NCBI GenBank assembly: GCA_937935355.1
Contig: CALGYR010000006.1
Span: forward strand, 5,608 to 69,607
Source: an uncultured bacterium
GTDB taxonomy: Bacteria > Planctomycetota > SZUA-567 > JAKLDR01
DNA length: 64,000 nucleotides
Reading direction: 5' to 3'
Below, one piece after another: positions 2,524-57,615 of this stretch. The first letter of the stretch is position 1; each line of letters starts with the position of its first letter. The position numbers and the translations under genes are program-made. The notes beneath the pieces are model-generated. The model searched no databases and had not been told where the DNA came from. It saw only the letters and a program-made list of their open reading frames with translations.

Positions 2524-2842
2524 GGAAACGATCCTCCCTGGGCCTTGCCGGCCCGGATCACGGGGTTTCGAGATGTCTGATCCCGTTTTTCAACCCCGGC
2601 GCCCGGCGCAGTTGCCGACCGGAGTAAGATGGAGGCCGCGTCGTCGTTCGGCCTCGAGGGGAGCGAGTCCCCAGCCAACGAAAGGATTCACCGTGGCCGC
2701 CAGACGCAGGACGACGCAGCGCTGAGCGGCCGTAGCGAAACCATGGTATCACCTGAACCCGTGCAGTTCAACTTCGATTCCGGCATCAATCCCACGAACA
2801 AGCAGTGCCCGTCGGTGTATAGGCATGCAGATGGGAGGCAGC

Positions 2843-3946
2843 ATGTCCAGCAGACAGAGAGCAGTTTGCGAGAGCGTTCCCACACGGTCTTCGGCGCAGC
2901 TCGCGGATCAACTCCGCGCCAGGATTTCCAAGGGAACTCTGGCCGGCGGCAGCTTCCTGCCCAGCGAGCGCGAGTTGGCCCGGGAGCAGAAAGTCAGCAG
3001 CAAGACCGCCCGGCGGGCGCTGAAGCTGCTCGAGTCCGAGGCGCTCATCGTCTCGGAAAGCCGCCGCGGCTACCGGGTGCTCTCGCGCGCCAACGACCCG
3101 GACCGGGGCTGCCCGATCGCCATGGTGATCGCCAATCCGCCCGAGTCCGGAGACCGCAGCTTCTACGGCAGCCTGCTGGGCGCGCTCCAGGACGCCGCCG
3201 GGCGCAGGGGCTGGTCGCTCTTGGGCGTGCAGCGCGAGGGGCGCCCGATTGGCGAGGTCGTCGAGCGCCTGCGTGCGGCCCGGGCTTGCGGCGCGGTGGT
3301 CGACTCGCTCGATACGGAACTGCTCGAGGCGGTCAGGCGCCTGGGCGTCCCGGTGGTGCTGGCCGACGCCTGGTTCGCCGACTCGCCCTGCGATGCGGTC
3401 GTCCAGGACGGCTTCGCCGGCGGGGTGCTGGCCGCGGAGTGGCTCGCCGGGCGCGGCCACCGGCGGATCGCCTTCCTGGGTCCGGACCCGCGGGGAGCGG
3501 ACATGCTGGTCGTCGAGCGCTTCTCCGGAGCGGTCGGTGGCCTGGCCCGCTCGGGCCTGGCGCTCGACCCGGGCCTGACCGCAGTGACGCGGCAGGGCGA
3601 TCCGGATGCGGCCGCCAGGTGCGCCCGGGAGTTGCTCTCCCGGGCGGACCGTCCCACCGCGGTGCTGGCCCTCTGGCAGGGCTTCGCCCGGGAGGCGGCC
3701 CGCGCCGCGCGCGAGCTGGGACTGGCCGTGGGCCGCGACCTGGACCTGGTCGGCTGGACGACGAGCCCGGCCCCCGGTGCGCCGGAGGCTACGGGCGCGG
3801 CCGGGCCGGAGCTCTCCGCGGAGGTGGTCTGGAGCCCCGCGGATCTCGCCGAGCTCTGCATTCTGCGCCTGATGCAGCGGCGGGCCGACCCGCGCATGCC
3901 GGCCTCGCTGACCCGCGTTCCGGTGCGGCTCGAAGTTCGCGGATAG
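2843..3946 (+). CDS. AraR-type transcriptional regulator (GntR-family HTH N-terminus + LacI/GalR-type periplasmic-binding-like effector domain), paralog 1
   Basis: GntR HTH 'LPSERELAREQKVSSKTARRALKLLESEALIVSESRRGYRV' followed by a LacI-type sugar-binding fold ('VVLADAWFAD...DAVVQDGFAGGVLAAEWLAGRGHRRIAFLG'). ATG 2843 is preceded by GGGAGG; alternative ATGs at 2825 and 2831. The stop TAG lies directly upstream of the next gene's RBS. Confidence 0.8.
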   Translation: MSSRQRAVCESVPTRSSAQLADQLRARISKGTLAGGSFLPSERELAREQKVSSKTARRALKLLESEALIVSESRRGYRVLSRANDPDRGCPIAMVIANPPESGDRSFYGSLLGALQDAAGRRGWSLLGVQREGRPIGEVVERLRAARACGAVVDSLDTELLEAVRRLGVPVVLADAWFADSPCDAVVQDGFAGGVLAAEWLAGRGHRRIAFLGPDPRGADMLVVERFSGAVGGLARSGLALDPGLTAVTRQGDPDAAARCARELLSRADRPTAVLALWQGFAREAARAARELGLAVGRDLDLVGWTTSPAPGAPEATGAAGPELSAEVVWSPADLAELCILRLMQRRADPRMPASLTRVPVRLEVRG

Positions 3947-3957
3947 GGAGGACGAAG

Positions 3958-5190
3958 ATGATCGTGAGAAGTCTGCCGATGCTTCCGGCTCTGTTGCTCG
4001 TTGGCCTCGTGGGCGCGCTCGCGGCAGAGCCCCCGGCCAAGGGCCCTCTGGCCGACCGGCCCTCGAAGCCGGGGCCGCACCTCGAGAAGGTGAAGGCCCT
4101 CGGCGACAACGCCTGGGTGAACCTGGGCAAGCCCGCGCCCGACCCCAAGTACGGCCCGGCCCAGGGGCGCTCATGGAGCCGCAAGATGGCCTTTGCGCCG
4201 GACCTGCGCGGGGCCTTCATCTACGGCGAGGGCGTCCACGGCGGCGCCTCGACGCGCGGCGGGAAGCGCTTCTACAACGACGACCTCTTCTTCTACGACA
4301 TCAACGCCAACGCCTGGGTCTGCTGCCATCCGGGCACGCCGCTGGACGACCCGGGGCTGACCTACGACAAGGAGCTCGGCTGCGAGAGGGATAAGAACGG
4401 GGACATCATCCCGGTGGCGGTCAGCGTCCACGCCTACTGGACGCCGGACTACGACACCGACCGGAAGATGTTCACGATGATGCCCTCGCCGGCCTCGCTC
4501 TACTGGCGCAAGGAGCTCGAGAAGTTCCGCCCCTATTTCAAGGAGAAGGGCAACTCCGACCCGCGCTGGGGCGGCTACGGCAGCCCCTGGTACTGGGACC
4601 CGCGCACCGGCAAGTGGGAGTTCCGGCGCGTCAAGGGCCCGGCCCCGGTCTGCAACGTGGACAACGTCTACTTCTACTCGCGCAAGCTCAAGAAGGGCGT
4701 GAACCTCTTCCGCGGCGTCTGGCTCTACGACCACGCGGAGAACTCCTGGAAGAAGGTGAACGAGGCCGGCGGCGGCAACGGGGCCTACTGCTATGATCCC
4801 AAACGCGAGTGGATCTACGCGGTCGGCGCCGACCGCAACGACGGCGGGAGGAACAAGCTCTCGGTCCTGGACATCGCCAGCGGAAAGTGGACGAAGATCG
4901 AGGCCGAGGGCGACGCCGGCACCGGAATGGAGTCGAATCAGGCCTTCTTCGCCTACGACTCGGTCAACGACGTCGTGGTCTTCCACATCCATGACCGGCA
5001 CCACATCTACGTTCCGGACGCGAGGAAGTGGACCGTGCTGCCCTCGACGCTCCCCGAGAAGGTGCGCTGGGTCTCCGGCAGCGGCTTCTACGACCCGGAG
5101 ACCAACGCCCACTTCTACTTCAACGCCGGCGACAGCAACATCGGCCCCGGCAACATGTGGGCCTGGCGGTACGCCGGCGGCGGGCGCTGA
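3958..5190 (+). CDS. Secreted Kelch-like beta-propeller protein (paralog family member 1)
   Basis: ATG 3958 with RBS GGGAGGACGAAG; signal peptide 'MIVRSLPMLPALLLVGLVGALAA'. Family-specific N-terminal motif 'GPHLEKVKALGDNAWVNLGKPAPDPKYG' and C-terminal 'NAGDSNIGPGNMWAWRY' shared with the paralogs at 36361, 37811 and other paralogs. The supplied ORF 2629..5190 has a spurious 443-aa Arg/Gly-rich N-extension. Confidence 0.8.
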   Translation: MIVRSLPMLPALLLVGLVGALAAEPPAKGPLADRPSKPGPHLEKVKALGDNAWVNLGKPAPDPKYGPAQGRSWSRKMAFAPDLRGAFIYGEGVHGGASTRGGKRFYNDDLFFYDINANAWVCCHPGTPLDDPGLTYDKELGCERDKNGDIIPVAVSVHAYWTPDYDTDRKMFTMMPSPASLYWRKELEKFRPYFKEKGNSDPRWGGYGSPWYWDPRTGKWEFRRVKGPAPVCNVDNVYFYSRKLKKGVNLFRGVWLYDHAENSWKKVNEAGGGNGAYCYDPKREWIYAVGADRNDGGRNKLSVLDIASGKWTKIEAEGDAGTGMESNQAFFAYDSVNDVVVFHIHDRHHIYVPDARKWTVLPSTLPEKVRWVSGSGFYDPETNAHFYFNAGDSNIGPGNMWAWRYAGGGR

Positions 5191-5207
5191 GACGGGAGGA
5201 GTCCACG

Positions 5208-7871
5208 ATGAAGACCGCCTGCATCATCGGCATCCTGGCGCTCGCGGCCTGCGCCGTCCCCGCGGCCGAGCCCGCGGCGCCCTCCGGGGCCGTGATCCTC
5301 GACGAGAACAGCCACTGGCGCCTGGAGCGCACCTGGGTGCCGGGCCTGGCCAGGACCTCCGACGGGCGGCTGGTGCCGCTGGTCCCCGGCGCCGGCCTCA
5401 AGGGTCCGGCCCACGCCCTGGTCTTCAAACCGGCGCCCGGCGAGAAGTACGAGATGCCCAGTTGGCCGGCGCTGCCCGGGGACTGGGCTGCCCCGGGCTT
5501 CGACGACTCGCACTACGCGCTCCACCGCGGCCCGGTCAGCGTCAACGACTGCTACTCCATGCGGAGGGCCTTCACGCCACGCTGGGGCTTCAGCCTGGCC
5601 CGGATGCGCGGGCGCTTCGCGGTCGATGATCCTGCCGCGGTCGGGGACCTCAAGCTCGACCTGGTCTACCAGGGGGGTGCCGCCGTCTACCTCAACGGCG
5701 CCGAAGTGGCCCGCGGCGGACTTCCCGAGGGCGAGGTCGCGCCCGAGGCTCCGGCGGCGGACTACTCCGACGCCGAGACCGCCCGCCATAACGAGTGGGT
5801 GCGCTGCGACAAGATGGACCGGAAGCTGAGCGGGGTCGTCATCCCGGCGGCCAGGCTGGTCAAGGGCGTCAACGTCCTGGCCATCGAGGTCCACCGCGCG
5901 CCCATGCCCGAGAAGATGCTCAAGGACAAGAACAACTGGATTCCGCTGGAGCTCGTCTCGGTCCGGCTGAGCGCGGCTTCCGGCGCAGGGCTGGTGCCCA
6001 ACGGGGGCAAGCCCGCGGGCCTCTCCGTGTGGACCGGCGAGCCGACCTACTGCGTGCGGGTCGACGACCCCGGAGACCGGAGCCAGGCCGAGCCGCGGCC
6101 GATCCGGATCGCCGCCTGCCGGAACAGCACGTTCTCCGGGCAGGCGGTGATCTTCAACGACCAGCCCCTGGGCGCGGTCAGAGCGACGGTCGGAGAACTT
6201 GCGACCGCCGACGGCGCCAAGCTTCCGGCCTCGGCCTGCCAGGTGCGCTACTCCAAGCCCGACCGCCGGGGCGGCGGTGTGGAGACCGGGGTCTACGGAC
6301 CCTACAACGACATGAACTGGTTCGACGCGCTCGAGGAGGATCCGCCCGCCGAGGTCCCGCTGCGCTTCTTCCAGCCAAAGCCGCACCTGCCCAAGCAGAT
6401 GCACCTGGCCGTTCAGCCGGTTTGGCTCACCGTGCGTGTGCCGGCCGACGCCAAGCTTGGAGAGTACAAAGGACAGCTGGCCCTCGAGATAGCCGGGCAG
6501 AGCACCGTGAAGGTGCCCGTCGAGGTCAAGGTCCACGGCTTCCAGCTGCCGGACCCGAAGGAGTTCGCCACGTTCCTGGAGATGCACCACTCGCCGGAGA
6601 CGCTGGCCTACTACTACAAGGTCCCGATCTGGAGCGAGGAGCACTGGAAGCTCCTGGAGCGGTCCTTCGAACTTTCGGCGCGCGCCGGCAACAAGCTGAT
6701 CTTCATCCCGCTCTTCGCCCGCGCGCGCTTCGGCAACGATCACGGCATGCTGCGCTTCGTCAAGAAGGGAGACGACTGGGACTACGACTTCTCGATCGTC
6801 GAGCGCTACCTCGACCTGGCCATGAAGCACTTCGACCGCAACATGGTGGTAGTCTGGCACATCACCGAGCCGGCCCACGAGGACAACTACTGGAAGATCC
6901 GCCACGGGGGCAAGGTCGAGCCGCAGAAACATCCCCAGGTGACGGTAGTCGACCCCAAGGACGGGAGCCTCTCGCTCTTCAAGGCTCCGCTCTTCGGCAC
7001 GCAGGAGTCCCGCGACTTCTGGAAGCCGGTCTGCGCGCGGATCGCCGAGCTCGTCAAGAAGAAGGGCCTGACCAGGCGGGCGCTGGTCCTCGGCACCGAG
7101 CAGGACCTGGGCGTGAGCAAGGGCTTCCTCGACGACCTCAGGAACATCGCCCCCGGCTTCAAGTGGTCCCGGTGCACGCACCCGGCGCCGCCGCCGAGCC
7201 TGAAGTACCCCAACGGACTGGAGCTGGGCTACGCCAGCGACGTCTACGGCGGTGCGCTCCACCGCCCGCCCGAGCAGCAGCGCTGCTACGGCTGGATGTG
7301 GCGCGACGACGAGAACCTGGGCGTCCACGCCCACTGGCCGCGGAACTCCATGACCGACCATGCCTCCCTGTCGAAGATCCACCAGGTCATGGAGACGCAC
7401 CTGGTCAGCAGCCCCTACGCCATCGAGGAGTACGCCTACGCGGGGCTGTCCTACCAGGGGGCTGACTTCTGGGTCATTCCCGGCGTGAAGTCCAGGATGG
7501 ACAACGGCCGGGTCGGCACGCTCATCGACCGCTTCCCGGAGGCGATCTGGGGCTCGATCTCGATCGGCAACGGAGCGGTCTCCTGGCTGGCCCCCGGCCC
7601 CAACGGGACGATCTCCACGGCCCGCTTCGAGGTCCTCTGCGAGGGCATCCAGGAGGCCAACGTCCGGGTGTTCATCGAGCGGGCGCTGACCGACCCCGCC
7701 GCGCGCGCCAAGCTCGGCGAAGATCTGGCCGCGAAGGCGCAGGCGGTCCTCGACGAGCGCTTCCGGTTGCTCTATCCCCACCGGTTCATGGAGACCGCCT
7801 CCGGCGTCGGCGCGCGGCGGGAGAAGCTGCTCGCCGCCGCCGACGAGGTGGCCGCCCGGCTGGGGAAGTAG
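5208..7871 (+). CDS. Secreted DUF4091-like glycoside-hydrolase-like protein (paralog of 34370..36331)
   Basis: ATG 5208 after GGGAGGAG; signal peptide 'MKTACIIGILALAACAVPAAEP'. Conserved block 'QPVWLTVRVPADAKLGEYKGQLALEIAGQSTVKVPVEVKVHGFQLPD' matches 'QPVWLTVLVPADAAPGVYRAEVTVSAEGLAATKVPLGIKVYGWTMPD' in the paralog. The DUF4091/GH-like assignment is from memory of that family motif. The N-terminal extension in the ORF track is rejected. Confidence 0.7.
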   Translation: MKTACIIGILALAACAVPAAEPAAPSGAVILDENSHWRLERTWVPGLARTSDGRLVPLVPGAGLKGPAHALVFKPAPGEKYEMPSWPALPGDWAAPGFDDSHYALHRGPVSVNDCYSMRRAFTPRWGFSLARMRGRFAVDDPAAVGDLKLDLVYQGGAAVYLNGAEVARGGLPEGEVAPEAPAADYSDAETARHNEWVRCDKMDRKLSGVVIPAARLVKGVNVLAIEVHRAPMPEKMLKDKNNWIPLELVSVRLSAASGAGLVPNGGKPAGLSVWTGEPTYCVRVDDPGDRSQAEPRPIRIAACRNSTFSGQAVIFNDQPLGAVRATVGELATADGAKLPASACQVRYSKPDRRGGGVETGVYGPYNDMNWFDALEEDPPAEVPLRFFQPKPHLPKQMHLAVQPVWLTVRVPADAKLGEYKGQLALEIAGQSTVKVPVEVKVHGFQLPDPKEFATFLEMHHSPETLAYYYKVPIWSEEHWKLLERSFELSARAGNKLIFIPLFARARFGNDHGMLRFVKKGDDWDYDFSIVERYLDLAMKHFDRNMVVVWHITEPAHEDNYWKIRHGGKVEPQKHPQVTVVDPKDGSLSLFKAPLFGTQESRDFWKPVCARIAELVKKKGLTRRALVLGTEQDLGVSKGFLDDLRNIAPGFKWSRCTHPAPPPSLKYPNGLELGYASDVYGGALHRPPEQQRCYGWMWRDDENLGVHAHWPRNSMTDHASLSKIHQVMETHLVSSPYAIEEYAYAGLSYQGADFWVIPGVKSRMDNGRVGTLIDRFPEAIWGSISIGNGAVSWLAPGPNGTISTARFEVLCEGIQEANVRVFIERALTDPAARAKLGEDLAAKAQAVLDERFRLLYPHRFMETASGVGARREKLLAAADEVAARLGK

Positions 7872-10911: not shown

Positions 10912-10993
10912 CAGCCCGACGCGGTCGGCAAACTGCGTTCAGGCGCGGTCTCATCCCCCGGGTGAGGCCGCGCTGTCTTAGGAGCCCAGATTG

Positions 10994-11086
10994 GCCACAG
11001 ATGCACACAGATAAACGCAGATCTTGAGCCTGGGATTGAGGCCGTCTGTCGGCCCCAATCTGTGTGCATCTGTGTTCATCTGTGGC
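10994..11086. repeat. CACAGATG decamer-repeat locus 1 (inverted pair of 10-bp-phased direct repeats) abutting the LarA-like RBS
   Basis: 10994-11023 GCCACAGATGCACACAGATAAACGCAGATC; 11058-11086 ATCTGTGTGCATCTGTGTTCATCTGTGGC in opposite orientation. Confidence 0.6.
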
Positions 11087-11102
11087 TACCAGGAGAGATG
11101 CC

Positions 11103-14994: not shown

Positions 14995-17778
14995 CTACCG
15001 GCCGAAGCAGGCCGGCGCGGCCCGCTCCGCCGCCCGGCGCGATTCCTCCTTCTCTCCCGCGTTCCAGGCGGTCTTGGCGAGCGTGTCCCAGTTCTCCCGG
15101 CAGCGGTCGTCGAGCCGCACGGCCTGGCGCGAGCGCTCCAGCGCCTCCCGGGGGCGGTCGAGCGCCGAGAGCGCCGCAGCCAGGTCGCGCAGCAGGTAGT
15201 CGCGCGCCGGGCCCAGGGCGAGCGCTTCCTCGATCAGTTCCCGGGCCAGGTCCGGGCGCCCGGAGCGCAGGGCCTCCCCGCCCATCCAGCCCAGCAGTGT
15301 CCAGAGCGCGTAGGACGGCTCCGGCGCCGCCGGATCGAGGTCGCGCGCCTGGCGCAGCTTACGGAGGGAGGTCTGCGCATCGCCGGCCGAGGCGGCCGAG
15401 AGCAGCCCCTCGGCCAGCAGCCGGCGGGACATGCGCAGCTTGGACTCCGGGCCGTCGGGGATCGCGCCCGGTCCCGGCTCCCAGAGCCGGGTGACCACCG
15501 TCTCAAGGTTGCGCACGCCCCACTCGCCGCTTCGCGCCAGGCGTCCCTGCGAGAGCAGTTCGGCCAGAGGCAGGTCGTCGCTCGAGGGCCGCGCGCCGTG
15601 GGCCAGTTCCCGGAGCTGCTCCGGCCCGGCCACGCGGTGGGCGAGGACCGCCCCGGGCGAGCCCAGGCCCAGATCGGCGAGCTCCGCGGGCTTGAGCCTT
15701 GAGGACCGGATGCGCGCGGCGAGCTCCCCGGGCTCGGTCGCCACGGCCGCCGGGCCGCGCGAGCCCAGCAGCATGACCACCGGGCGATAGGCGTCCAGGC
15801 ATCCGACCCAGAGGGTCGCGTCCGGGAAGACCTCCAGGAAGGAGCGCACTACCGCGCTGAAAGCCTCCGGCGGCAACTGGAAGAGCGGGATCCACTGGGC
15901 GAAGAGGCCGTCCCCGGCCAGCCGGCTCCGCGCCAGCCGGAAGTACTCCAGCGAGAAGAGGCCGCCGGCCCCCGCGTCCTCCGGGAAGACTATGTCGGTG
16001 ACGATGAGCTCGAACCGGCCGCGCTCGGCGAGCAGCCGCGAGCGGCCGTCGGCGACGCTCACGGCGAAGGTCGCGACCGAATTGTGCGGCCGGAAGGCCC
16101 CGGCGGCGCGCGCCACCGCCGGGGAGAGCTCGGCGCACTCCACCGGGCGGCCCGGCGCCGCGGCGGCGCTCCAGGCGGCGGTTACGCCCGAGCCCAGGCC
16201 GACGTGCAGCGTGCGACCCCGCGCAGCCGGACAGAGCAGGGCCGGCAGCGCGCCCATCCGCTTCTCGACGCGCAGCCACGGCGTCGTGTCCTCGGCCTGC
16301 ATCTTGGGGCCGATGTACAGGCGCCGGACCCGGCGGCCCTCGCTGGGCTCGCGTTCCGCGACGAGGGAGACGACCGCCTCGAGGTCCTCGGTCTGCGACT
16401 CGAGCACGGGCTCGGCCTCCGGGGCGGTCCCCAGGGCACGGAGGCCGTATAGCTCCGTCTGCGCCGCCGGCAGCACCGCCGCGGGCAGCGCCAGGATGAT
16501 CAGCCAGCGCCCGGCCGCGCCGAGCCGGCTGCCCCGGCGAGCCGACCAGAAGGCCAGGACCAGAGCGGCGAGGACGGCTGCGCCGCCGAGGGCGGCCAGG
16601 GTCCACCTGGTGCCCAGGAGGGGCAGGAGGACCAGCGCCCCGACGACCGGACCGGCCACCGAGCCGAGGTCGAGCGCCGCGGCCGCGCCGCCGACCGAGC
16701 GGCCCACGCGGCCGGCCGAGGGGGAGAGCAGGTGGACGAGGAGCGGGAAGGCCGCGCCGAGCGCCAGCATGGCCGGCGCGCAGGCGGCGAAGGCGATGGT
16801 CAGGCTTCCGGAGCCGCGCCCCATGGCCGCGAGCGTCGGCACGGAGAGCCCGGCGAACGCCCCCCCGAGGGCCAGGAGCACCGCGAGCGCCGGCGCCGCC
16901 GACAGGGCCGAGGGCTTGCGGATCAGCCAGCCGCCCAGAAAGGAGCCGGCGCCGAGGGCCAGGATGCAGACCGCCGAGACCGCGGCGAAGGCCCGGATGG
17001 TGCTCGACGAGCCGAAGAGCACCGCACGCAACTGGGCGAGCTCGACGCACAGGACCAGCGCGCCGGCCAGACCGGCGAGGACCAGAGCCGCGGCGCGCGG
17101 CAGGGCCCGGGCTTCCTGTTGCCGGGCCGGCCCGGCGGTGTGCCTGGCGCGCTTCTCGTCGGGCGTGGTCGGATCGCGGGCCAGGAAGAAGCCGGCCGCC
17201 GCCGCGGCGAGGCTGAGCCCGGCGGCCAGGACCACGCTCAGCCGCAGGCCCAGGGCCGGGATGAGCAGCCAGGCCGCCGCGAGCGCGCCGGCCGCGGCCC
17301 CCAGGCAGTTGGCGGCGTGCAGCCGCCCGGCGATGCGCGCGGCGGCGCCCTCGCGACCGGCGGCCGCCCAGCGCGCGACCACGGGAAACGCCCCGCCCAT
17401 CAGACCGGCAGGCAGGAAGAGGAAGAGCGCGGCCAGGGCGAAGCGGGCCGCGCCCGCGGTCAGGGCGCCCGAACCGGCCGGGACCAGGGCGGAGTAGACG
17501 GGCGGCAGCGCCGCGGGCACGGCGAGCAGCGCCGCCCCGCAGAGCGCCGCGCCTAGTTGCAGCAGAGCGAAGAGCCTTCGCGGAGACGCGGAGCGGTCGC
17601 CGATCCGTCCGAACCAGGCCGCCCCGGCGGCCAGCCCGCCCAGGTAGGCGGCCAGCACCGCGGCGGCCGCCGGCGCCGTGCCGCCATAGCTCAGTGCAAA
17701 CCAGCGCGCCCAGACCACCTCGTGGACTAGGCCGGCGAAGCCGGTCAGGAAGAGCAGCAGCGCGAACACGGGCCCCAT
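14995..17778 (-). CDS. Spermidine-synthase-like fused membrane protein (N-terminal multi-TM domain, SpeE-like SAM-dependent domain, C-terminal TPR-like tail)
   Basis: About 12 predicted TM segments (Ala/Leu-rich). Then 'LHVGLGSGVTAAW' (SAM-binding GxGxG) and 'DIVFPEDAGAGGLFSLEYFRLARSRLAGDGLFAQW' (SpeE-like). Start set at the internal ATG 17778 because a MITE-like element overlaps the track start 17835. Confidence 0.7.
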   Translation of the reverse strand: MGPVFALLLFLTGFAGLVHEVVWARWFALSYGGTAPAAAAVLAAYLGGLAAGAAWFGRIGDRSASPRRLFALLQLGAALCGAALLAVPAALPPVYSALVPAGSGALTAGAARFALAALFLFLPAGLMGGAFPVVARWAAAGREGAAARIAGRLHAANCLGAAAGALAAAWLLIPALGLRLSVVLAAGLSLAAAAAGFFLARDPTTPDEKRARHTAGPARQQEARALPRAAALVLAGLAGALVLCVELAQLRAVLFGSSSTIRAFAAVSAVCILALGAGSFLGGWLIRKPSALSAAPALAVLLALGGAFAGLSVPTLAAMGRGSGSLTIAFAACAPAMLALGAAFPLLVHLLSPSAGRVGRSVGGAAAALDLGSVAGPVVGALVLLPLLGTRWTLAALGGAAVLAALVLAFWSARRGSRLGAAGRWLIILALPAAVLPAAQTELYGLRALGTAPEAEPVLESQTEDLEAVVSLVAEREPSEGRRVRRLYIGPKMQAEDTTPWLRVEKRMGALPALLCPAARGRTLHVGLGSGVTAAWSAAAAPGRPVECAELSPAVARAAGAFRPHNSVATFAVSVADGRSRLLAERGRFELIVTDIVFPEDAGAGGLFSLEYFRLARSRLAGDGLFAQWIPLFQLPPEAFSAVVRSFLEVFPDATLWVGCLDAYRPVVMLLGSRGPAAVATEPGELAARIRSSRLKPAELADLGLGSPGAVLAHRVAGPEQLRELAHGARPSSDDLPLAELLSQGRLARSGEWGVRNLETVVTRLWEPGPGAIPDGPESKLRMSRRLLAEGLLSAASAGDAQTSLRKLRQARDLDPAAPEPSYALWTLLGWMGGEALRSGRPDLARELIEEALALGPARDYLLRDLAAALSALDRPREALERSRQAVRLDDRCRENWDTLAKTAWNAGEKEESRRAAERAAPACFGR

Positions 17779-17815
17779 TCTACACCGGGCGGGCGGGAAG
17801 TCACGCCGGTCCGGG

Positions 17816-18009
17816 CGTTCCCCAGGGTCTTTCAATTTTGCCCAACGGGCCTACAACTTGGGGCCGGCGGTGCTATCGCCGCCGGCCCCAAGTTCCCTCC
17901 AGAGCCGATCCTCGCTCGAGAGCAGGGGACCGAAAGCCAAGTCCTGACAGCAGGACTTGGCTTTCAGGTAGGCCCGTTGGGCAGAATTAAGAGACCCTGG
18001 GGCGTTCCC
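17816..18009. mobile_element. MITE-like structured element: 39/42-bp terminal inverted repeats enclosing two perfect hairpins
   Basis: Left arm 17816-17854 (CGTTCCCCAGGGTCTTTCAATTTTGCCCAACGGGCCTAC) is the near-exact reverse complement of right arm 17968-18009. Internal palindromes: 17855-17894 (AACTTGGGGCCGGCGG...CCGCCGGCCCCAAGTT) and 17932-17965 (GAAAGCCAAGTCCTG...CAGGACTTGGCTTTC). Confidence 0.5.
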
Positions 18010-18029
18010 GCCCGAGCCGCAGAGCGCCG

Positions 18030-18110
18030 CTACCTGCCGGCCGCAGCCTTCTTGTACCGGTAGGCCCACATCGTCCCGTTGTCGCGGCCGTCGCAGGCGG
18101 TGTGCAGGTT
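18030..18110 (-). pseudogene. Out-of-frame 3' fragment of a Kelch-family gene ('NLHTACDGRDNGTMWAYRYKKAAAGR*') directly after the HEAT/Kelch gene stop
   Basis: 56 of 58 nt identical to the 3' end of the paralog at 37811..39169 (…GGTAGGCCCACATCGT[C/A]CCGTTGTCGCGGCCGTCGCAGGCGGTGTGCAGG), shifted +1 relative to the 18109..20781 reading frame. Confidence 0.45.
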
Positions 18111-20781
18111 ACTTGTCCGCCGACGGCCGCCTTCCTCCGTCCGCCCCGAAAAACGCCTTTGTGCCAACGGGCACGTTCTTCAGCCGGAAGGCGACCATCT
18201 TGCCTGATCTGAGGCCGATGAAGACGTTGTGCTGCGGATCGAAGTCGAAGACGACCATTTGGAAATTGCCGTCGGCAGCCTTGCGCCATGTGTCGGTTTC
18301 CCTGTCATAGGCATAGGCCCCGGTCGAGCGGAGCACTGTCAGGTCGCGGTTCAACGAGTCGAAGACCATCTGCATGCCCTGGCTGCCGCGCTCCCCTTCG
18401 GGCAGCGGACTTTTCGACTTGCGGGCCGTGCCCGTCCCAGGACCCATCAGCCACACGCCGAAATCCTCCGGCGTCTGACCGGCGCGCTTCTTGTGGTTCC
18501 TGACCTCGCGCAGCACCAGGTCGGCAACCGGGTCGTACCCGGCGGCTTCGAATACATAGAATGCGTGCAGACGTGGCAAGCCCGCAAACGGAAGTTTGAC
18601 CAGGTTTTTCGTCCGGGTATCTATAGCGTCGGTGACCGGTCCCATGAACTCGTTGTAGACGTGTCCACGTCGAGAGTCGGCGATGTACCACTTCGGTCCC
18701 TCGCCGGTCGTGACCGTGGTTTGGGGGTAATGACCGTCGAAACGGTCCAGGGTCAAGTCGTAGGTGGCCGCGTCGGTGCGGCGGGTCATGTCCGTGGGAA
18801 ATCCGGTCGAATTGTTCATCCAGAACAGGCGCGATTGCCAGCAGTAGACCAGCCCCCTAGAACACCCGCGGCCGGCCCTGACTTCGTTGAAGAACAAACC
18901 GGACACCTCGTTGGGACGGATGACGAACTGCTTGCCGCTGGCCGGGTCGTAGCCGATGCACTCGTTCGAATAGCACATGTCACAGCCGCCGTAACGCAAC
19001 CACACTCCCGCACGGGCATCCACTGCGCAACGGGTCTCACCGTACGAGGCGACGGTCACCGCTTTGTCGAGGACGACCACTTTCCCGATCGGGAAATCGG
19101 CGCCGAATTGAGGGTTGACCGGGTTGTAGGCGGGAATAAACCCATCCAATTCCTTCCCGACGCGCGCGAGCAGTTCCGCATGTTCCTGTCCTCCCGCTTC
19201 GACTTCCCTGAGCATCGCCCAGGCGGAACGTCTGGGCAGGTACTCCTTCTCGCCTTCGAGAAGTGCGGCCAGCGCGCGGGCGGCCTCCGGTCCGCCTATG
19301 CGGCCAAGAGCCAGTGCCGCGCGGCTCCTTGTCACGCGGTTCGAGGACGAGAGTGCCCGGACCAGCGGCTGGACCGCCGCCAGCTGGGCGCTCTCGCCCA
19401 GGCCCCGTGCAGCGGCCGTCGCCGCGGAGAGATTCTCCGAGTCCAGCAGGGGGGCGATCCTGTCTATGGCGTCCGGCCCACCGATATAGCCGACGACCAA
19501 CGGCACCGAAAAGCCGCGAACAGTCAGAAACTTCTCCAGATATGGCAGGGCCGGCGGTCCGGAAAAGCGTGCCAGCAGAAACTCCGAATGGAGCATCCAG
19601 CGCTCGACGCCCAGCCGCGGGCCGAGTTCTTCGGCCAGAGCCTTGCCGTCGCACACCGCCGCCAGCGCGCGCTTGCCGACATCGGCGGAACTCCCCGATT
19701 GATTGCTTGCTGGCCAAGGCTGGCCGCGCCCGGCCAACTCGCGGAAGAATGCCGTCGCCGCGGAGCCGCCGGAGTAGTCCGCCAGGGCGGCTTTTGCCCG
19801 GATCTGGATGTGTTCGCTCTTGGTGGTTTTGCATAGCTCGATCAGCTTCACGATATCCTCCTCCGTCCCGAACGCCGCTATGAACGGGCCCGAATCCCGG
19901 GTGCCGATTTCATCGCGAACTGCGGCATCCCAATGTTTGGCCAGATCCGGTTTCTGGACGGGTCGCGGGACGGCCGTTGGGCTTTCCCAGCGACGCAGCG
20001 CCCTGGCAGCCGCCTGGCGCACCAGCAGGCTGGGGTCGCCCGAGAGTTTCTTCGCCACCGCCTGCCCCGAGCCGCAACCGGCCGCGAGCCGGGCCGCCGC
20101 CTCCCGCAGGGGCACATAAGACGAGCCGGCCAAGGCTTCGAGGGCCGCCGCCGTGATCGGGTCAGCGAAGGCCGCGCCCAGCGGTGCTTGCCACAGGCCG
20201 GCATCGCGAGGGGAGGCCCGCGAGTAGAGCTTGTCGCCGGCGACCCACCGGACAATGTTGAAGTCCTCCTCGCCGTCGAGCCGGCGCAGTGCGTGCGCAG
20301 CCGAAAGTGCCACAGCCGGGTCGCCCCCCGCCGCCGCCTTTGCCAGCGCCGGCCAGGCGCGCGCGTCCTTGAGCCAGCCCAGCAGCCACGCCGCGCGGAT
20401 CGCCTCCGCCCCGCCTGCCGACAGCTTTGCCTCGAGTTCCTTCCGCTTCGCTTCGTCCGGCCGGTGCGCCACCAACACCCCGCCGATCACCTCCACGCGG
20501 ATGCCCGTGCCTTTCTCGAAGTCAGCGGCTGGCTTCGATGCGGAGACGTTCTCGCCGCCGACACGACCGCGTCCGGAGATCCCGTCGACGGTCGCCCAGC
20601 GCAGCCCCGCTGCCTCCCCCAACCGCCAGGCGAACTCATGCTCGTTCCACCAGCGGGTCTCCAGCGAGACAGTGGTGGACAGCGATGGCTCCCCGGTCCG
20701 ACCGAACTTCGGGGCTGCGCACAGCCCGCTCAGCACGGCGAGGATGACGGCCGCAGTGTATCTCATCCCATGACGTTTCAT
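18109..20781 (-). CDS. Secreted HEAT-repeat protein with a C-terminal Kelch-family beta-propeller
   Basis: Signal peptide 'MRYTAAVILAVLSGLCAAP'. Repeated 'A...ALG.LG...A...L..LL.D....VR..AA.AL' HEAT/PBS-lyase-like units. C-terminal region homologous to the paralogs ('YDRETDTWRKAADGNFQMVVFDFDPQHNVF'). Start overlaps the regulator stop (ATGA). Confidence 0.7.
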   Translation of the reverse strand: MKRHGMRYTAAVILAVLSGLCAAPKFGRTGEPSLSTTVSLETRWWNEHEFAWRLGEAAGLRWATVDGISGRGRVGGENVSASKPAADFEKGTGIRVEVIGGVLVAHRPDEAKRKELEAKLSAGGAEAIRAAWLLGWLKDARAWPALAKAAAGGDPAVALSAAHALRRLDGEEDFNIVRWVAGDKLYSRASPRDAGLWQAPLGAAFADPITAAALEALAGSSYVPLREAAARLAAGCGSGQAVAKKLSGDPSLLVRQAAARALRRWESPTAVPRPVQKPDLAKHWDAAVRDEIGTRDSGPFIAAFGTEEDIVKLIELCKTTKSEHIQIRAKAALADYSGGSAATAFFRELAGRGQPWPASNQSGSSADVGKRALAAVCDGKALAEELGPRLGVERWMLHSEFLLARFSGPPALPYLEKFLTVRGFSVPLVVGYIGGPDAIDRIAPLLDSENLSAATAAARGLGESAQLAAVQPLVRALSSSNRVTRSRAALALGRIGGPEAARALAALLEGEKEYLPRRSAWAMLREVEAGGQEHAELLARVGKELDGFIPAYNPVNPQFGADFPIGKVVVLDKAVTVASYGETRCAVDARAGVWLRYGGCDMCYSNECIGYDPASGKQFVIRPNEVSGLFFNEVRAGRGCSRGLVYCWQSRLFWMNNSTGFPTDMTRRTDAATYDLTLDRFDGHYPQTTVTTGEGPKWYIADSRRGHVYNEFMGPVTDAIDTRTKNLVKLPFAGLPRLHAFYVFEAAGYDPVADLVLREVRNHKKRAGQTPEDFGVWLMGPGTGTARKSKSPLPEGERGSQGMQMVFDSLNRDLTVLRSTGAYAYDRETDTWRKAADGNFQMVVFDFDPQHNVFIGLRSGKMVAFRLKNVPVGTKAFFGADGGRRPSADK

Positions 20782-31679: not shown

Positions 31680-34319
31680 TCACTGCCCGTCCTTCATCTC
31701 CTCCATTATCGCGGTCGCGCGGTCGAACCGGAGCGCCCAGACCTTGCGCGCGCTGGAGTTGTTGAGCAGCACCAGCTTCAGCTTCGGGTCGTAGGCCAGG
31801 GCGTCGGAGTAGCTGAACGGTTTGTCCTTATGCTCGACCTCCTTGCCGCCGTCGACCCACTTGAGATCCAGCCAGTAGAACTTGCCGTCGTTGAGGTCCC
31901 ATGCGTAGCTGCGGACCTTGCCATCCGGGCGCTTGAGCGGGCACATGCCGAGAACCAGATCGGCCTCCGGCAGATATACGGCCTCGCCGCCGCGGAAGAT
32001 CCACTTGTCCAAGGCCTTGGGCTTGGCGAAGGCGATCTTCTCGCTGGTGCCCTTGGCGATGTCGTACCGGAAGATCTCCTCGGCGTAGGTCATCCACAGG
32101 CAGTCGCGCTTGGAGTCGTGGATCACGCAGGGCCCGTCGCACCAGCCGACGTCGCCCTTGGGCCTGGGCCCGTTCCAGGGCAGCTTCCGCCAGGCGCCGG
32201 CCCTGGCGTCGAAGCGGAAGAGCCCCTTGTCCGACCAGGTGACCGCGCCGGCCGGCGTGGCCTTGATGTGGCTGTGCATCACCCCGCGATGCTCCAGCCC
32301 GGGCATGGGCACCGGCTCCCACTCGCGGACCAGCGGGTCGTAGACGCGCTCGAAGTAGAACATCTTGCGGGCGGTCGGGTCGTAGCTGTAGCCCTTGTAG
32401 GCGTGCATGGGCACGTGGGCGCGGTCGTGGAACGACAGCGGCACCGGCTGGCTGGCGTAGACGTTCTCGATGGGATCGTCGGGGTGATAGCCGATGGTCC
32501 AGAAGCCGCCGAGCACGCTGAAGTGGGCCACGTCGTTCTCGTGGCTGGTGGCGTGCCCGCCGCCCCAGAGCAGGAACTGGTGGCGGTCGGTGTCGTAGGC
32601 GCTGGTGCCCCAGCGGTTGGTGGCGCCCGGCGCGTACCTGGGGAACTTGAACGCGGTCCACTGGTTGGCGGGCAGGCCGTCGATGAACTGCCTGGCCGTC
32701 GCAGCCGCGTCGGCCGGGGCGGCCGCCTCCCAGGCGGCCGGATCGATCCGGTTGAAGTCGTACGCCCCGGCAGACGCGCCGCGCTCGGCGGTGCCGGCGG
32801 CATCGGCCCTGGCCGCGTCCACCCGGCAGGCCCAGGTCTGGAGGGCGTCGTGGCCGACGGTGGTCACGCAGACCAGAACGTCGTCCGGCCCCACCGCGCC
32901 TGGCTGGATGCCCATGCGGTCCGCCGCCGGGCCGGCCCCGCCGGAGGGCAGGTGAGCCAGCAGCTGCCAGGCGTTGGCGTCCGGGTCGTAGGTCCAGATC
33001 TCCTGGTCGAGCGGCCCGCGGCTGTAGCCGCCGGCCAGCACCACCCTGCCGGCCGTGGGCAGCCAGCCCAGGACGTGGCCCGCGCGCGGCGAGGGGCATT
33101 TCTCCGGGAACTTCTGCTCCCAGGTGCGCGTAGCGCAGTCGTAGAGCCAGGTGTCGGACAGCGTCCGGTCGAGCCCGTCGCCGCCGAAGAGCACGATCTT
33201 TTTCCGGACCGGGTCGAAGACGGTCTGCGACCGCGCCCGGCCGGGCGGCTCGGGCGAGAGCGCGTCGACGGCCTGCTCGAAGATGACCCGGGCGGCGCGG
33301 ACCGCGGCGATCTTTTCCGGGGTTATCGCACCGGAGAGCGTCGGGCCGGCCGCCTTGACCGCGGAAGAGGCGGCGGTCAGACGCTTGGCGGCCATCTCCC
33401 CGGCCGGCTTCTCGCTCCCGGCCAGACCCGCAGCCGCCACCTCGCCGGCGAACTTCCCGGTTGCAGCGGCCAGCTTGGCGGCCTCGGCGACGAGGTCCAC
33501 CTTGGCCTCCTCCTCGGTCTCGGCCACGGCGTGGCGGCTGGAGCAGCGGCCGAGCAGCCTCTTGGCCTCCCAGCGCAGGTCCTTCGATTTCGCGAAGAGC
33601 TCCTTGAGCTTGGCCGAGCCGAATTCGAGCTTCCGCCACTCGTTCTTCTCGATGCTGTAAGTCCAGGTGGAGACGTCGGCGCTGCCGCCGCCCCCGCCGG
33701 TGTGGAGGATCTCCTTGTTCACCGGGTCGTGGCACATCGAGCCCCAGACCAGGCAATTCCCGCGCGGCGCGGTCTTGCGCTCACCCCAGGTCCGCCTGGC
33801 GGTGTCGTAGACGAACATCTCCTTGCCGGGCGACAGGTAGATCCGGCCGTCGTCCGGGACATGACACCAGGCGTAGCTGTTGGTGACCACGGGCGCCCAC
33901 TGTCCGCCGGCGACCAGGCGCAGGTGCTCGCCGTCCTTGTAGAACGGGCCGCCGCCCAGGCCGTTGCCGTGCCTCTCGCGGTCCTTGGCATACTGCTCGC
34001 CCAGCGGTCCGGACTCCGGGCGGTCCTGTTCCAGGCCTGCCGGGTAGGCGTTGAACCACCGGCCGGAGGCCAGGTCGAACTCCTCGGTGTCGTAGTGGCG
34101 GGCGATCCCGCCGTAGCCCCGGCCCTGCGTGCCGCCGGTCAATACGAACCGTTTGATCCCGGAGGCGTAGACGAACAGCGGCTGCTTGCGGCCGCCGGTC
34201 TTCGACTCGGCCAGCTTCACCCAGGCGTTGGCCGGGGCATCCTTGAGCGCGGACGGCTCGGCAGCGGTCAGAGGACTGCCAAGCCAGAGCGCAATCGAAA
34301 TGCCGATCATCAGACGCAT
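31680..34319 (-). CDS. Large secreted Kelch-like beta-propeller protein (family member; two propeller-like halves)
   Basis: ATG 34319 with GGGAGGACGAAG RBS; signal peptide 'MRLMIGISIALWLGSPLTAAEP'. Repeated 'W.YD....W' Kelch-like blades. Confidence 0.75.
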   Translation of the reverse strand: MRLMIGISIALWLGSPLTAAEPSALKDAPANAWVKLAESKTGGRKQPLFVYASGIKRFVLTGGTQGRGYGGIARHYDTEEFDLASGRWFNAYPAGLEQDRPESGPLGEQYAKDRERHGNGLGGGPFYKDGEHLRLVAGGQWAPVVTNSYAWCHVPDDGRIYLSPGKEMFVYDTARRTWGERKTAPRGNCLVWGSMCHDPVNKEILHTGGGGGSADVSTWTYSIEKNEWRKLEFGSAKLKELFAKSKDLRWEAKRLLGRCSSRHAVAETEEEAKVDLVAEAAKLAAATGKFAGEVAAAGLAGSEKPAGEMAAKRLTAASSAVKAAGPTLSGAITPEKIAAVRAARVIFEQAVDALSPEPPGRARSQTVFDPVRKKIVLFGGDGLDRTLSDTWLYDCATRTWEQKFPEKCPSPRAGHVLGWLPTAGRVVLAGGYSRGPLDQEIWTYDPDANAWQLLAHLPSGGAGPAADRMGIQPGAVGPDDVLVCVTTVGHDALQTWACRVDAARADAAGTAERGASAGAYDFNRIDPAAWEAAAPADAAATARQFIDGLPANQWTAFKFPRYAPGATNRWGTSAYDTDRHQFLLWGGGHATSHENDVAHFSVLGGFWTIGYHPDDPIENVYASQPVPLSFHDRAHVPMHAYKGYSYDPTARKMFYFERVYDPLVREWEPVPMPGLEHRGVMHSHIKATPAGAVTWSDKGLFRFDARAGAWRKLPWNGPRPKGDVGWCDGPCVIHDSKRDCLWMTYAEEIFRYDIAKGTSEKIAFAKPKALDKWIFRGGEAVYLPEADLVLGMCPLKRPDGKVRSYAWDLNDGKFYWLDLKWVDGGKEVEHKDKPFSYSDALAYDPKLKLVLLNNSSARKVWALRFDRATAIMEEMKDGQ

Positions 34320-34369
34320 CTTCGTCCTCCCTCGAGTTGACATGGCAGCCCTCTTCTCTTGCGTCTCAT

Positions 34370-36331: not shown

Positions 36332-36360
36332 CTTCGTCCTCCCGTCAGAACCCTCGGATC

Positions 36361-37722: not shown

Positions 37723-37810
37723 CTTTCCCTTCTCCTTGCTTTGGCAAAAGCACATCCCCTGCCTCCAGCAGGCCGCTTTTAACGGCCTGCCAGTTCTTCT
37801 GGCGCCTTCT

Positions 37811-39169
37811 CTACTTCTTCTCCGCCGCCCGCTTGTAGCGGTAGGCCCACATCGTACCGTTGTCGCGGCCGTCGCAGGCGGTGTGCAGGATGTGGGCGTT
37901 GAGCTCCGGGTCGTAGAAGCCGGTCCAGGTGGGGTTGCCCTGGCGCTTGAGCTCAGGCGGATCCTTTGCAGCCACCTCCCACTCGTTCTTCTCCGGGTGA
38001 TAGACGTAGACGCCGGGCGCCTCGTCGCCCTTGGAGCGGTGGAAGAACAGTACCACCGCGTCGTTGACGCTGTCGTAGAAGAGCATGGCGCGGTTGGTCG
38101 CGTAGCTCGTGGGGGTCGGATTCACCTTCGGCTCCAGGCGCGAGAAGGTCTCGGTCTTGACGTCAAACATCCACAGGGCGCTCTCGCCAGGCTTGATCTC
38201 CAGGCCCTTGGCCGGGTAGATGCCGCCGGCCAGATAGATCCGGTCGCGCTTGCTGTCGTAGCAGCTGTTCGGGTCAATTTGCCAGGGAGGAGGGGTTCCT
38301 TTGCGTTTGATCTCCACCCAGTCCTGAGCCCCGGGATCGTACCAGGCGATATGGGAACTGCGGTTCTTGTAGCCGAAAGCCTTCTTAACGGTGGGAACGT
38401 AGACAAGAGTGGCGCCGAAACCGCCCGGTGAGTTTGGATTGGCGGTGCGATAGCGTTCGAAGCGACCGGTCCTGGAGTTGTAGATGTACGGGCTGGAGCC
38501 CTTGCTTGCAGCCCACACCGGCTCTTTGCCCGCCGCCCGGGCCTTGTCCGTGGACTCCTTGTGCGCCTTCAGGGCTGCGACTCTTCCGATGATGCCCTTG
38601 TGAAAGTCGCCCTCCTTCCAGTACGCCCCCGGGCACCCCATGTTCATGAAGAGCCCGCGGTCGGTGTCGTATGTCACCATGCCGTAGGCGTGCACCATTG
38701 ACGCGATGGGCAGGGGCTGGCCGTCCGGGGCCACTTCGAAGCCGGTCTTCTCGTCGAAGCCGATCTGCCCGTAACCCTCCTTGGCGTGAATGCCCGGATA
38801 CACGCAGATCCACCTGTGCTGGTTGAGGTCGTAGAACCAGAGGTCGTCGTGGTAGTGCCCGTCGGGCTTGACCATCCCGTGCGGGCCCTCGCCGAAGACG
38901 AACGCCCCCCGCAGGTCCGGGGCGAAGGGCGCCACCGGCGACCAGCTTCGCCCCCGGGCCTTGCCCCACTTGGGATCGGGAGCAGGAGAGCCGAGATCTA
39001 CCCACTGGTTGTCGCCGAGCGCCTTGATCTTCGCCAAGTGCTCGCCCTTCGGCTCGCTCGGCAGCGCGGCCAGCGGGCCCTTGCGCTCGGCCTCGGCAGG
39101 CTCTCCTGCCCCGAGAGCCCCGGCGGTCAGGGCCAGAACCAGAGCCACTGCACAGACATGCCTTGCCAT
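37811..39169 (-). CDS. Secreted Kelch-like beta-propeller protein (tandem array member)
   Basis: ATG 39169; signal peptide 'MARHVCAVALVLALTAGALGAGEP'. 'HLAKIKALGDNQWVDLGSPAPDPKWG...HYHDDLWFYDLNQHRWICVYPG...CDGRDNGTMWAYRYK'. Confidence 0.8.
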   Translation of the reverse strand: MARHVCAVALVLALTAGALGAGEPAEAERKGPLAALPSEPKGEHLAKIKALGDNQWVDLGSPAPDPKWGKARGRSWSPVAPFAPDLRGAFVFGEGPHGMVKPDGHYHDDLWFYDLNQHRWICVYPGIHAKEGYGQIGFDEKTGFEVAPDGQPLPIASMVHAYGMVTYDTDRGLFMNMGCPGAYWKEGDFHKGIIGRVAALKAHKESTDKARAAGKEPVWAASKGSSPYIYNSRTGRFERYRTANPNSPGGFGATLVYVPTVKKAFGYKNRSSHIAWYDPGAQDWVEIKRKGTPPPWQIDPNSCYDSKRDRIYLAGGIYPAKGLEIKPGESALWMFDVKTETFSRLEPKVNPTPTSYATNRAMLFYDSVNDAVVLFFHRSKGDEAPGVYVYHPEKNEWEVAAKDPPELKRQGNPTWTGFYDPELNAHILHTACDGRDNGTMWAYRYKRAAEKK

Positions 39170-39191
39170 GAGTCTTTCTCCCCTCTCTGGT

Positions 39192-40328
39192 TCAGTTCGT
39201 CTCGGCGGCGGGTTTGCCGCCCGCATCGCCCTTGAAACTGAACTCCTTCGGCGGCTGGTAGGCCCAGACGCCCGATCCGCTCACCAGCAGGGCAACCTTG
39301 TCGACGGGGTCGTACCGGAACCGGCTCCAGACCGTGCCTTTCAACTCCGGGACCTGGGAGTCGACGTCGCGCCACTTCCCGGTCGCGCAGTCGAAGAGCG
39401 CCAGACGGCTGGGGCTGGGAGGATCCCCGCGCGGCACGTGGAGATAGAGGGCCGCGTCGTGCTCTGGCAGGTAGGTCAGCCCGGCGCCGCCGCTGGCCCC
39501 CTCCAGGGGATGGGCCTCGACGGACATGTCCTCCAGGTTCACCGTGCAGGCGGCGTCCGCGGGCGTGCTGCCGACGATCATGACGCGGTCGCTCTTGGGC
39601 AGGTACTCCATCTGGACGTTGATGCCAACCGGAACGATCTTCGACTTCACTGGGTGCCGCTTCCAGGTCTTCGCCTTGAGGTCGAACTGCTGAAGCTCCG
39701 TGCGCTCCTTGCCGTAGGCCCAGACGGTGTCGCGCTTGGAATCGTAGCAGCAGGCCTTGGCGTAACCGAACCCCCTGGCGTTGTCCGACAGCTGCGTCCA
39801 CTTGTTGTCTTTGAACGAGTAGCTCCAGGCATCGGACGGCACCATGCATGTGGGCTTGATGTCCCCCCAGCCCGGCCCGCAGCCGCCGAATATGAACATG
39901 GCCCCCGAGCTCTTCAGGAAGCACAGCTGGTTGTAGCTGTGCCGGGTGTAGGGCTTGTCGGAGTCCTTGAGCTTGCCGTTCTTGTGGTCGAGGTTGTCGT
40001 TGGTGTACCGCGCCCGGGCATCGGGCTCGTACATCTTCTGCCAGGTGAGCGTCGCCGGCGAGAAGGCGCAGACCTCGTTGCCCCAGTAGTCGGCGTGGCC
40101 GCCACCGAAGATCAGGAACCGATGGTTGACCGAATCGTAGACCCCGCCCGAATAGGCGAGGATCCCCCGGGGCGCCGGGGCGAAGCCGGCCACCTTCTCC
40201 CAGGAGTTCTCGGCGATGGCCGTCAGCTTGGGATTCGGCTCATGTCCGGGCTCCCCGGCCGAGGCGACTCCCAGGCTGCCGGCCAGAACGACCGTCGCGA
40301 GACTGCCCGTTGCCCAGCGCATGCTCAT
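39192..40328 (-). CDS. Secreted Kelch-like beta-propeller protein (tandem array member, divergent)
   Basis: Signal peptide 'MSMRWATGSLATVVLAGSLGVASAGEP'. Kelch-like 'FIFGGCGPGWGD...WSYSF..NKWTQL' blades. The ATG overlaps the regulator stop (ATGA). Confidence 0.75.
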   Translation of the reverse strand: MSMRWATGSLATVVLAGSLGVASAGEPGHEPNPKLTAIAENSWEKVAGFAPAPRGILAYSGGVYDSVNHRFLIFGGGHADYWGNEVCAFSPATLTWQKMYEPDARARYTNDNLDHKNGKLKDSDKPYTRHSYNQLCFLKSSGAMFIFGGCGPGWGDIKPTCMVPSDAWSYSFKDNKWTQLSDNARGFGYAKACCYDSKRDTVWAYGKERTELQQFDLKAKTWKRHPVKSKIVPVGINVQMEYLPKSDRVMIVGSTPADAACTVNLEDMSVEAHPLEGASGGAGLTYLPEHDAALYLHVPRGDPPSPSRLALFDCATGKWRDVDSQVPELKGTVWSRFRYDPVDKVALLVSGSGVWAYQPPKEFSFKGDAGGKPAAETN

Positions 40329-57010: not shown

Positions 57011-57070
57011 TCGCCTCCGAAGCCGGGGGGATTATAGCCGCGCCGGCCGGGGCGCGAGGGGAAAACGGGA

Positions 57071-57164
57071 GGACGCGGGGACATGGGGACACGGTGACGC
57101 GGTGACACGGTGACACGGTGACACGGGGACGCGGTGACACGGGGACAGGGGGACGCGGAGACAG
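57071..57164. repeat. Tandem array of ~11 octamers GG(G/T)GAC(A/G)N
   Basis: ggggacat|ggggacac|ggtgacgc|ggtgacac|ggtgacac|ggtgacac|ggggacgc|ggtgacac|ggggacag|ggggacgc|ggagacag; the 8-bp period is incompatible with coding. Confidence 0.7.
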
Positions 57165-57398
57165 AAGAAAATACGAAATATCGTCGCGTGGTGGCGACTC
57201 CGCGCCAGCCCTCTTCTTTCCTCCCGGAAGAAGACACAGCCAAGAAGAGCCAACTGATGTACCAGCCACTCGGGAAATGAAAACCATCACGGCAGTCCCC
57301 TCACGGGGACTCATGATACGAGGGAGACAAGGGGACGGTGACAAGGAGATGCGGAGGATACCGGAAACAGGGACTCTGCCGGAAGGCTCTTGCCTCCT

Positions 57399-57550: not shown

Positions 57551-57615
57551 GTAGAGACCGGCCGTCCTTGAACGCCTGGCCGGCGCGGCTATCCTCTCCG
57601 GCGAAGGAGACTGCC

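Follow-up and report, generated by a model that had tools for sequence, protein, structure and literature searches.

A Kelch-family 3' fragment, very probably a non-coding relic, behind the stop codon of a HEAT/beta-propeller gene in an uncultured Planctomycetota genome

Ectopic gene conversion between dispersed paralogues is known in bacteria, with the tuf genes as one example. Among short mobile elements, the known bacterial MITEs include the Correia, ERIC and Nezha-type elements, and +1 frameshifting of the prfB type is recognised, at a stop or hungry codon, by a slippery codon in the P site and a stimulator located at a fixed distance upstream. Gene conversion has a mosaic structure as its accepted signature, and the ectopic kind is described for the PE/PPE genes of Mycobacterium tuberculosis (PMC12046097).

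The locus described here lies in a window of 64,000 nt (the whole stretch of DNA that was analysed) and consists of a Kelch-family 3' fragment placed directly behind a HEAT-repeat gene. Its resemblance to the PE/PPE genes is in the mosaic identity, a sharply bounded near-identical tract amid diverged homologous sequence, and as in other ectopic conversion the partners are dispersed paralogues, about 20 kb apart on one replicon. Unlike in the PE/PPE case, one partner is an apparently dead 80-nt fragment, and the tract, of at least 58 nt, has the presumed deletion junction as its 5' limit and is known from a single genome. Compared with bacterial gene remnants, the fragment is likewise a short 3' piece with neither promoter nor start codon, intergenic, next to a synteny breakpoint and unannotated, but its core is unusually well preserved (97% identical to a live paralogue) and it abuts the upstream stop codon without filler bases. 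With prfB/RF2 it has in common a stop codon that is followed by an open +1 frame, whereas the slippery P-site codon and the correctly spaced Shine-Dalgarno stimulator are missing, the extension is present in no orthologue, and it would duplicate an existing structural element. The adjoining 183-nt element is like bacterial MITEs in its terminal inverted repeats, 8-bp direct repeat, lack of an ORF and strong hairpin; it differs from the known ones in that only two copies have been seen, and the relic lies beyond its borders and was not created by it.

The fragment and its Kelch-family partner

When the reverse complement of 17980..18200 was compared with the window by blastn, 18108..18051 aligned with 37889..37832 (E = 1.4e-23), that is, the core of the fragment on the minus strand matched the 3' end of the Kelch gene 37811..39169/39226 at 56/58 nt. 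In a repeat search of the window the match widened to 63/68 (18041-18108 against 37822-37889), and the next paralogue (36366-36433) showed just 71% identity to the fragment. The two core mismatches are both synonymous third positions (GGG/GGT and CGG/CGC). The minus strand of 18030..18110 translates as NLHTACDGRDNGTMWAYRYKKAAAGR followed by a stop, and the corresponding end of the 37811 gene is ILHTACDGRDNGTMWAYRYKRAAEKK, also followed by a stop. The frame is +1 relative to the 890-residue gene and begins directly past its TAA, the first bases 3' of which are CCTGCACACC...TACAAG (18108..18051). The first-pass annotation had described a near-identical copy of a Kelch 3' end, out of frame just past the HEAT gene stop; the copy, its frame and the coordinates of both partners were all borne out, 37811..39169 being the 452-residue start choice (P0035).

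Of a Kelch-family gene, the fragment retains no more than the final 26 codons and the stop; the start codon and the 5' part are absent, and the HEAT gene lies upstream. A tblastn search with the Kelch family C-terminal peptide gave the fragment as the sole non-genic copy in the window. Protein sequences of the more than 50 homologues that were inspected show the C-terminal motif to be highly conserved, and 483 homologues of the 37811 gene with the conserved motif were collected. The likeness of the core exceeds this protein conservation, since with the same amino acids and the codon usage of the window 6.75 of 19 codons would be expected to differ, giving P(≤2 differ) = 0.006. A scan with the degenerate motif DNGTMWAYRYK of a genome-contig collection, which did not include the source genome, returned a single match in a full-length Polyangiaceae gene (L013).

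The partner gene belongs to one GntR-led operon, in which gene 39192 is directly followed by 37811, and then by 36361, a GH123 gene and another Kelch gene. The HEAT gene is also behind a GntR regulator, and after it there is nothing but the fragment. Paralogous GntR-led clusters, with Kelch-family genes and GH123 glycosidases, occupy 31680-41473 and 2629-7871, and their relatives add PcRGLX/GH127-like genes. These clusters look like a family of Planctomycetota polysaccharide-utilisation loci with very fluid gene order. Positions of the features are collected in Table 1. In front of the next gene downstream, a promoter-like GTGACT-16-TAGAAT is present on the minus strand at 17777-17804; its -10 element directly adjoins the start codon ATG of the MFS/spermidine-synthase gene, the transcript of which may be leaderless or have a very short leader.

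Table 1. Features of the locus and of its relatives, with positions in the window where given.
Feature	Position	Strand	Description
HEAT-repeat and divergent beta-propeller gene	18109..20781	-	complete, 890 aa; Pfam HEAT_2 E = 1e-19; TAA 18109..18111 genuine
Rearrangement junction	18109..18111	-	homology to closest relative ends at 18111; homology to 37811 gene begins at 18110/18108
Relic core	18051..18108	-	58 nt, 56 identical to 37832..37889; codons LHTACDGRDNGTMWAYRYK; probable gene-conversion or recent-copy tract
Relic tail	18030..18050	-	6 codons and TAG (KAAAGR, stop); 12/21 nt identical to 37811 gene
MITE	17820..18002		183 nt; 28 nt downstream of relic TAG; 35-nt terminal inverted repeats, 91% complementary; GGCGTTCC 8-bp direct repeat at both borders
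MFS/spermidine-synthase-like fused gene	14995..17778	-	927 aa; next gene downstream; not syntenic with HEAT gene in other lineages
Kelch-family gene	37811..39226	-	452/471 aa; Pfam Kelch families; 3' end is the relic's partner; 452 aa from ATG at 39169
L004-L007			downstream of HEAT gene: rve-family IS
L008			downstream of HEAT gene: small ORF
L009			downstream of HEAT gene: NHL-repeat gene
L011			downstream of HEAT gene: GH123 gene
L017			downstream of HEAT gene: Calx-beta gene
L018			downstream of HEAT gene: 

Mosaic identity and origin of the fragment

The identity to the 37811 gene is unevenly distributed, with 2 mismatches in the 58 nt of the core against 9 in the 21 nt of the in-frame tail (Fisher p = 5.6e-5, or 1.4e-5 without the stop codon). 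The flanking homologous sequence is significantly less like the 37811 gene, the presumed donor, than the tract, as gene conversion demands. The diverged tail keeps the frame, and its stop is at the same codon position as in the 37811 gene; estimated from base composition, frame and stop would be kept by chance in about 2% of cases in random DNA at this GC. Against the tail of the 36361 gene, the relic tail gives 22/24 with one 6-nt gap, a weak match that is too short to weigh. The mosaic suggests that the relic and the 37811 gene have a short gene-conversion tract in common, or that the relic is chimeric in origin. Conversion, and not recent duplication, is suggested by the sequences as the cause of the core similarity, although a single genome can prove neither its direction nor its reality, and the alternative is a parent gene that was itself chimeric or recently duplicated. 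Among the homologues of the 37811 gene and of the 45-residue ORF that spans the fragment, there was no full-length gene ending in ...YRYKKAAAGR.

The closest relative (L002, GCA_035390085.1) aligns over its positions 4-2238 to 20345-18111 of the window with 84.9% nucleotide identity, and the alignment ends at the T of the stop codon. In this relative, the HEAT orthologue stops at a TGA within GTGA, and an ORF runs from that GTG. Its residues 27-61 (...EPFHQPNPKLAALPVNTWVRVADKQPAP) are 54% identical over 35 residues to the N-terminus of the Kelch gene 39192..40328 (tblastn E = 3.5e-9). Of this Kelch-like gene, which is of the 39192 type, 62 codons are seen before unrelated sequence and the contig end. 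In the unrelated sequence past codon 62 (L002 2490-2807), 35 nt match the N-terminus-encoding part of the MFS gene (17667-17701) at 86% identity, which could be an insertion, a rearrangement or chance and is too short to build on. Since homology to L002 ends at the stop, where L002 starts a Kelch-like gene, the fragment is best read as a relic of a lost downstream Kelch gene; this comparison draws on one close relative, and the relatives are labelled Planctomycetota MAGs.

The history that seems to us the most probable, with a fair measure of reserve, would then be a deletion of the downstream gene combined with conversion of the core. A Kelch-family beta-propeller gene, complete at that time, would once have followed the HEAT/propeller gene, probably in translational coupling with it. 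The rest would have been lost by deletion or rearrangement between one breakpoint at the HEAT stop codon and another that spared the final 26 codons of a Kelch gene, leaving the HEAT gene intact with its stop at the normal position, and the relic (about 80 nt, 79-81) would now lie in the 3' untranslated region of the HEAT gene, without a function of its own. The core may have been acquired by short non-reciprocal recombination (gene conversion) with the expressed 37811 paralogue, or the lost gene may have been a recent or chimeric relative of that paralogue; the last 21 nt of the relic would retain the older, diverged sequence. The MITE would have inserted later, or at least independently, into an intergenic hairpin 28 nt beyond the relic. 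Exactly this structure would result if everything between the start of a 39192-like gene and the last 26 codons of a 37811-like gene had been lost. The gene in L002 is like the 39192 type, which has another C-terminus, so the deletion needs at least two lost genes, and it also has against it that the more distant orthologous loci carry unrelated downstream genes.

A less likely explanation, to which we would still give some weight, is that a short 3' piece of the 37811 gene was copied ectopically into the 3' flank of the HEAT gene by illegitimate or template-switch recombination, and that no resident paralogue ever stood there. Such an event agrees with a core 97% identical to the 37811 gene and far less similar to any other paralogue, with the lack of any other trace of a lost gene, and with downstream genes that differ in all distant orthologous loci. 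However, a fresh copy should be uniformly similar, whereas the identity falls to 12/21 over the last 7 codons and to nil past the stop, beyond which blastn found no similarity to the 37811 gene in the window, and yet frame and stop are kept. Moreover, the closest relative starts a Kelch-family gene exactly at the junction. The diverged tail, in frame and of the same length, together with the Kelch-like start at the same position in L002, thus favours a largely deleted resident gene over a naked 58-nt paste. The proposal of the first-pass annotation, that recombination between paralogues pasted in a 3' fragment, can therefore be retained in part: the fragment is what remains of a paralogue and does not code, and the mosaic implies an exchange with the 37811 gene by recombination or conversion, but the bare paste gives way to the deletion of a resident gene.

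The downstream neighbour differs in every orthologous locus examined (Table 1), so the 3' flank of the HEAT gene is a recurrent rearrangement boundary. Orthologues of the MFS gene are at most 66% identical and have other upstream genes (URO-D, ACP-like gene). In a 68%-identical lineage (L004/L006, 9327-10791), the stop of the HEAT orthologue overlaps a 35-codon ORF (ATGA), which is followed by the rve-family transposase and an AbiEi/AbiEii pair, a mobile island in the same flank. The term recombination hot spot, applied earlier to this site, is suitable as a description, given the synteny break at the stop, the MITE with its target duplication, the IS or other disruption in relatives and the varying downstream genes; a raised rate is unproven.

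Assembly, reading frame and function

An assembly chimera, in which a shared repeat caused the end of a Kelch gene to be wrongly attached to the HEAT gene, could be suspected in a metagenome-assembled genome, all the more as the nearby MITE breaks one assembly. It is very unlikely, since no repeat at the junction is shared with the HEAT gene and the same junction is present in two contigs. The 80-kb MAG contig reads through the MITE, and its junction is identical to that of the ENA contig ERZ724101 NODE_25411 (L003), which has the same stop codon, fragment and inverted-repeat start and ends inside the inverted-repeat element, although both contigs may share read data. In addition, 2 core and 9 tail positions distinguish the relic from the 37811 gene, and a downstream sequence of its own follows it, which indicates a separate locus. 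The relic tail and the sequence 3' of the relic are unique within the window, so there was no mis-join onto the 37811 gene. An identical 890-residue protein is found in DAIPLX010000027.1 of GCA_036768975.1, a record with no gene called between it and the next annotated gene.

A frameshift was also considered, by which the HEAT/propeller gene would continue into the motif via a sequencing or assembly indel, a recent mutation or programmed +1 shifting at AAG TAA C. In its favour, the +1 frame is open from 18167 to 18030, and both core differences are synonymous. From a search of 5.8 billion proteins, 27 full-length-type homologues were obtained, of which 21 were aligned. All 21 end in ...AFRLKNVPxGTKAF[FY]G plus 0-13 residues, where the 890-residue gene stops, and the HTACDGRDNGTMWAYRYK motif is absent from every one of them. 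The closest (P0002, 86% identical) ends in ...FFGPDAGAPPAEDK (...PPAEDK, stop), and the protein studied here in ...FFGADGGRRPSADK (...RPSADK, stop), at the same codon and with equal length.

Pfam detects HEAT repeats only in the 890-residue protein. The C-terminal third (residues ~598-874), missed by Pfam, is a divergent beta-propeller homologous to the Kelch/GH123-associated family: when the family of the protein was compared by hhalign with 30 Kelch-family members, residues 598-874 aligned to 118-446 of the 452-position Kelch-family profile (probability 97.4%, E = 1.1e-11). The earlier label HEAT/Kelch is to be qualified accordingly, as the Kelch part is seen only by profile comparison, as a divergent propeller. 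The C-termini are co-aligned, the protein's own ...FDFDPQHNVFIGL..RSGKMVAFRLKNV being placed against the Kelch-family ...FYDPELNAHILHTACDGRDNGTMWAYRYKR (FDFDPQHNVF...AFRLKNV against FYDPELNAH...WAYRYKR) or, in a fuller rendering, ...VFDFDPQHNVFIGL..RSGKMVAFRLKNVPVG opposite ...GFYDPELNAHILHTACDGRDNGTMWAYRYKRAAEK. Since the protein already has a homologue of the terminal strand, fusion with the fragment would duplicate the last strands.

The 3' end of the gene reads GAC AAG TAA C, and the frames fused at the junction would read ...GGRR/RTSNLHTACDGR... Inspection of the sequence shows that AAG-TAA-C offers the Lys tRNA no +1 re-pairing (on AGU) and that the closest Shine-Dalgarno-like motif, GGAGGA, is found some 20 nt upstream, which differs from the layout in prfB. 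Among 37 long high-GC3 ORFs of the window, TAA ends 3 and is the least used stop, no more than a hint that is compatible with a stop re-formed at the junction. On the orthologue alignment and the profile comparison, the motif was rejected as the true C-terminus, and the sequence is identical in the second assembly contig (L003). The frameshift envisaged in the first-pass annotation is thus highly improbable; the comparison of orthologous loci, suggested there as a check, went against it, as orthologues stop at the same place and lack the motif. The present gene model for the HEAT protein is right, and the fragment is very probably a non-coding relic and not the true C-terminus.

It is equally hard to credit that the fragment acts as a small functional element, either through its TTG ORF as a micro-protein or as RNA, in the role of a 3' stabiliser or an sRNA target shared with the expressed paralogue, whose sequence it has in sense orientation. 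A 45-codon TTG ORF is open from 18030 to 18167, but its first 19 codons are the out-of-frame end of the HEAT gene. A phmmer search with the 45-residue product against 1.84 billion representatives returned only the cluster of 37811 orthologues, the sole real match, and a spurious ankyrin-repeat protein. The RNA fold of the relic was no better than that of shuffled sequences (z = +0.83; +0.47 and -0.89 for the equivalent ends of the 37811 and 36361 genes). No Rfam family matched the relic at the gathering score and no terminator-like site was found at it, so a structured RNA or a known RNA family was rejected.

The least credible reading of all is that repeated conversion keeps the relic near-identical to the 37811 gene as a silent donor or acceptor cassette that swaps the C-terminal strand among Kelch paralogues (or into the HEAT protein via rare +1 shifts), which, if true, would amount to a cassette system on a small scale, serving the closure strands of propellers in the polysaccharide loci of Planctomycetota.

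The adjoining MITE and the meaning of the locus

The element next to the relic, previously called MITE-like, proved to be a genuine MITE, with terminal inverted repeats, a target-site duplication and a copy in an unrelated context. It folds strongly (z = -10) and has no coding capacity. The second copy, 92% identical, is found at about 1107-1290 of a JGI metagenome contig (L016), between unrelated genes and with its own 8-bp repeat TTGCGCCC. As the 8-bp duplication of the MITE excludes the relic, the relic was not brought by it. Transduction of the fragment by the MITE was accordingly discarded, the relic being outside the duplication.

Other repeats were observed elsewhere in the window. Inverted arrays of 8-nt tandem units, GGGGACRC (~10 copies) at 57050-57163 and GYGTCCCC (~17 copies) at 57377-57560, flank an intergenic, lower-GC spacer of ~215 nt, and their arms are 76-85% complementary. 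At 10973-11097, CACAGAT-like heptads form an inverted repeat around a 45-nt loop, and a 30-nt, 97%-matching copy is located 43 kb away at 54153-54182; this is possibly another small repeated element.

For annotation, the 890-residue gene should be left as it is, with no frameshift 'repair', and the following 80 nt should be labelled as a Kelch-family pseudogene fragment. The relic is real but ordinary, a known kind of event that represents genome wear at a rearrangement-prone spot, and no new mechanism is implied. Together with the MITE, it provides a datable marker that separates the source lineage from its 85%-identical relative, and it documents operon decay and exchange between paralogues in the GntR-regulated Kelch/GH123 clusters of an uncultured Planctomycetota lineage.
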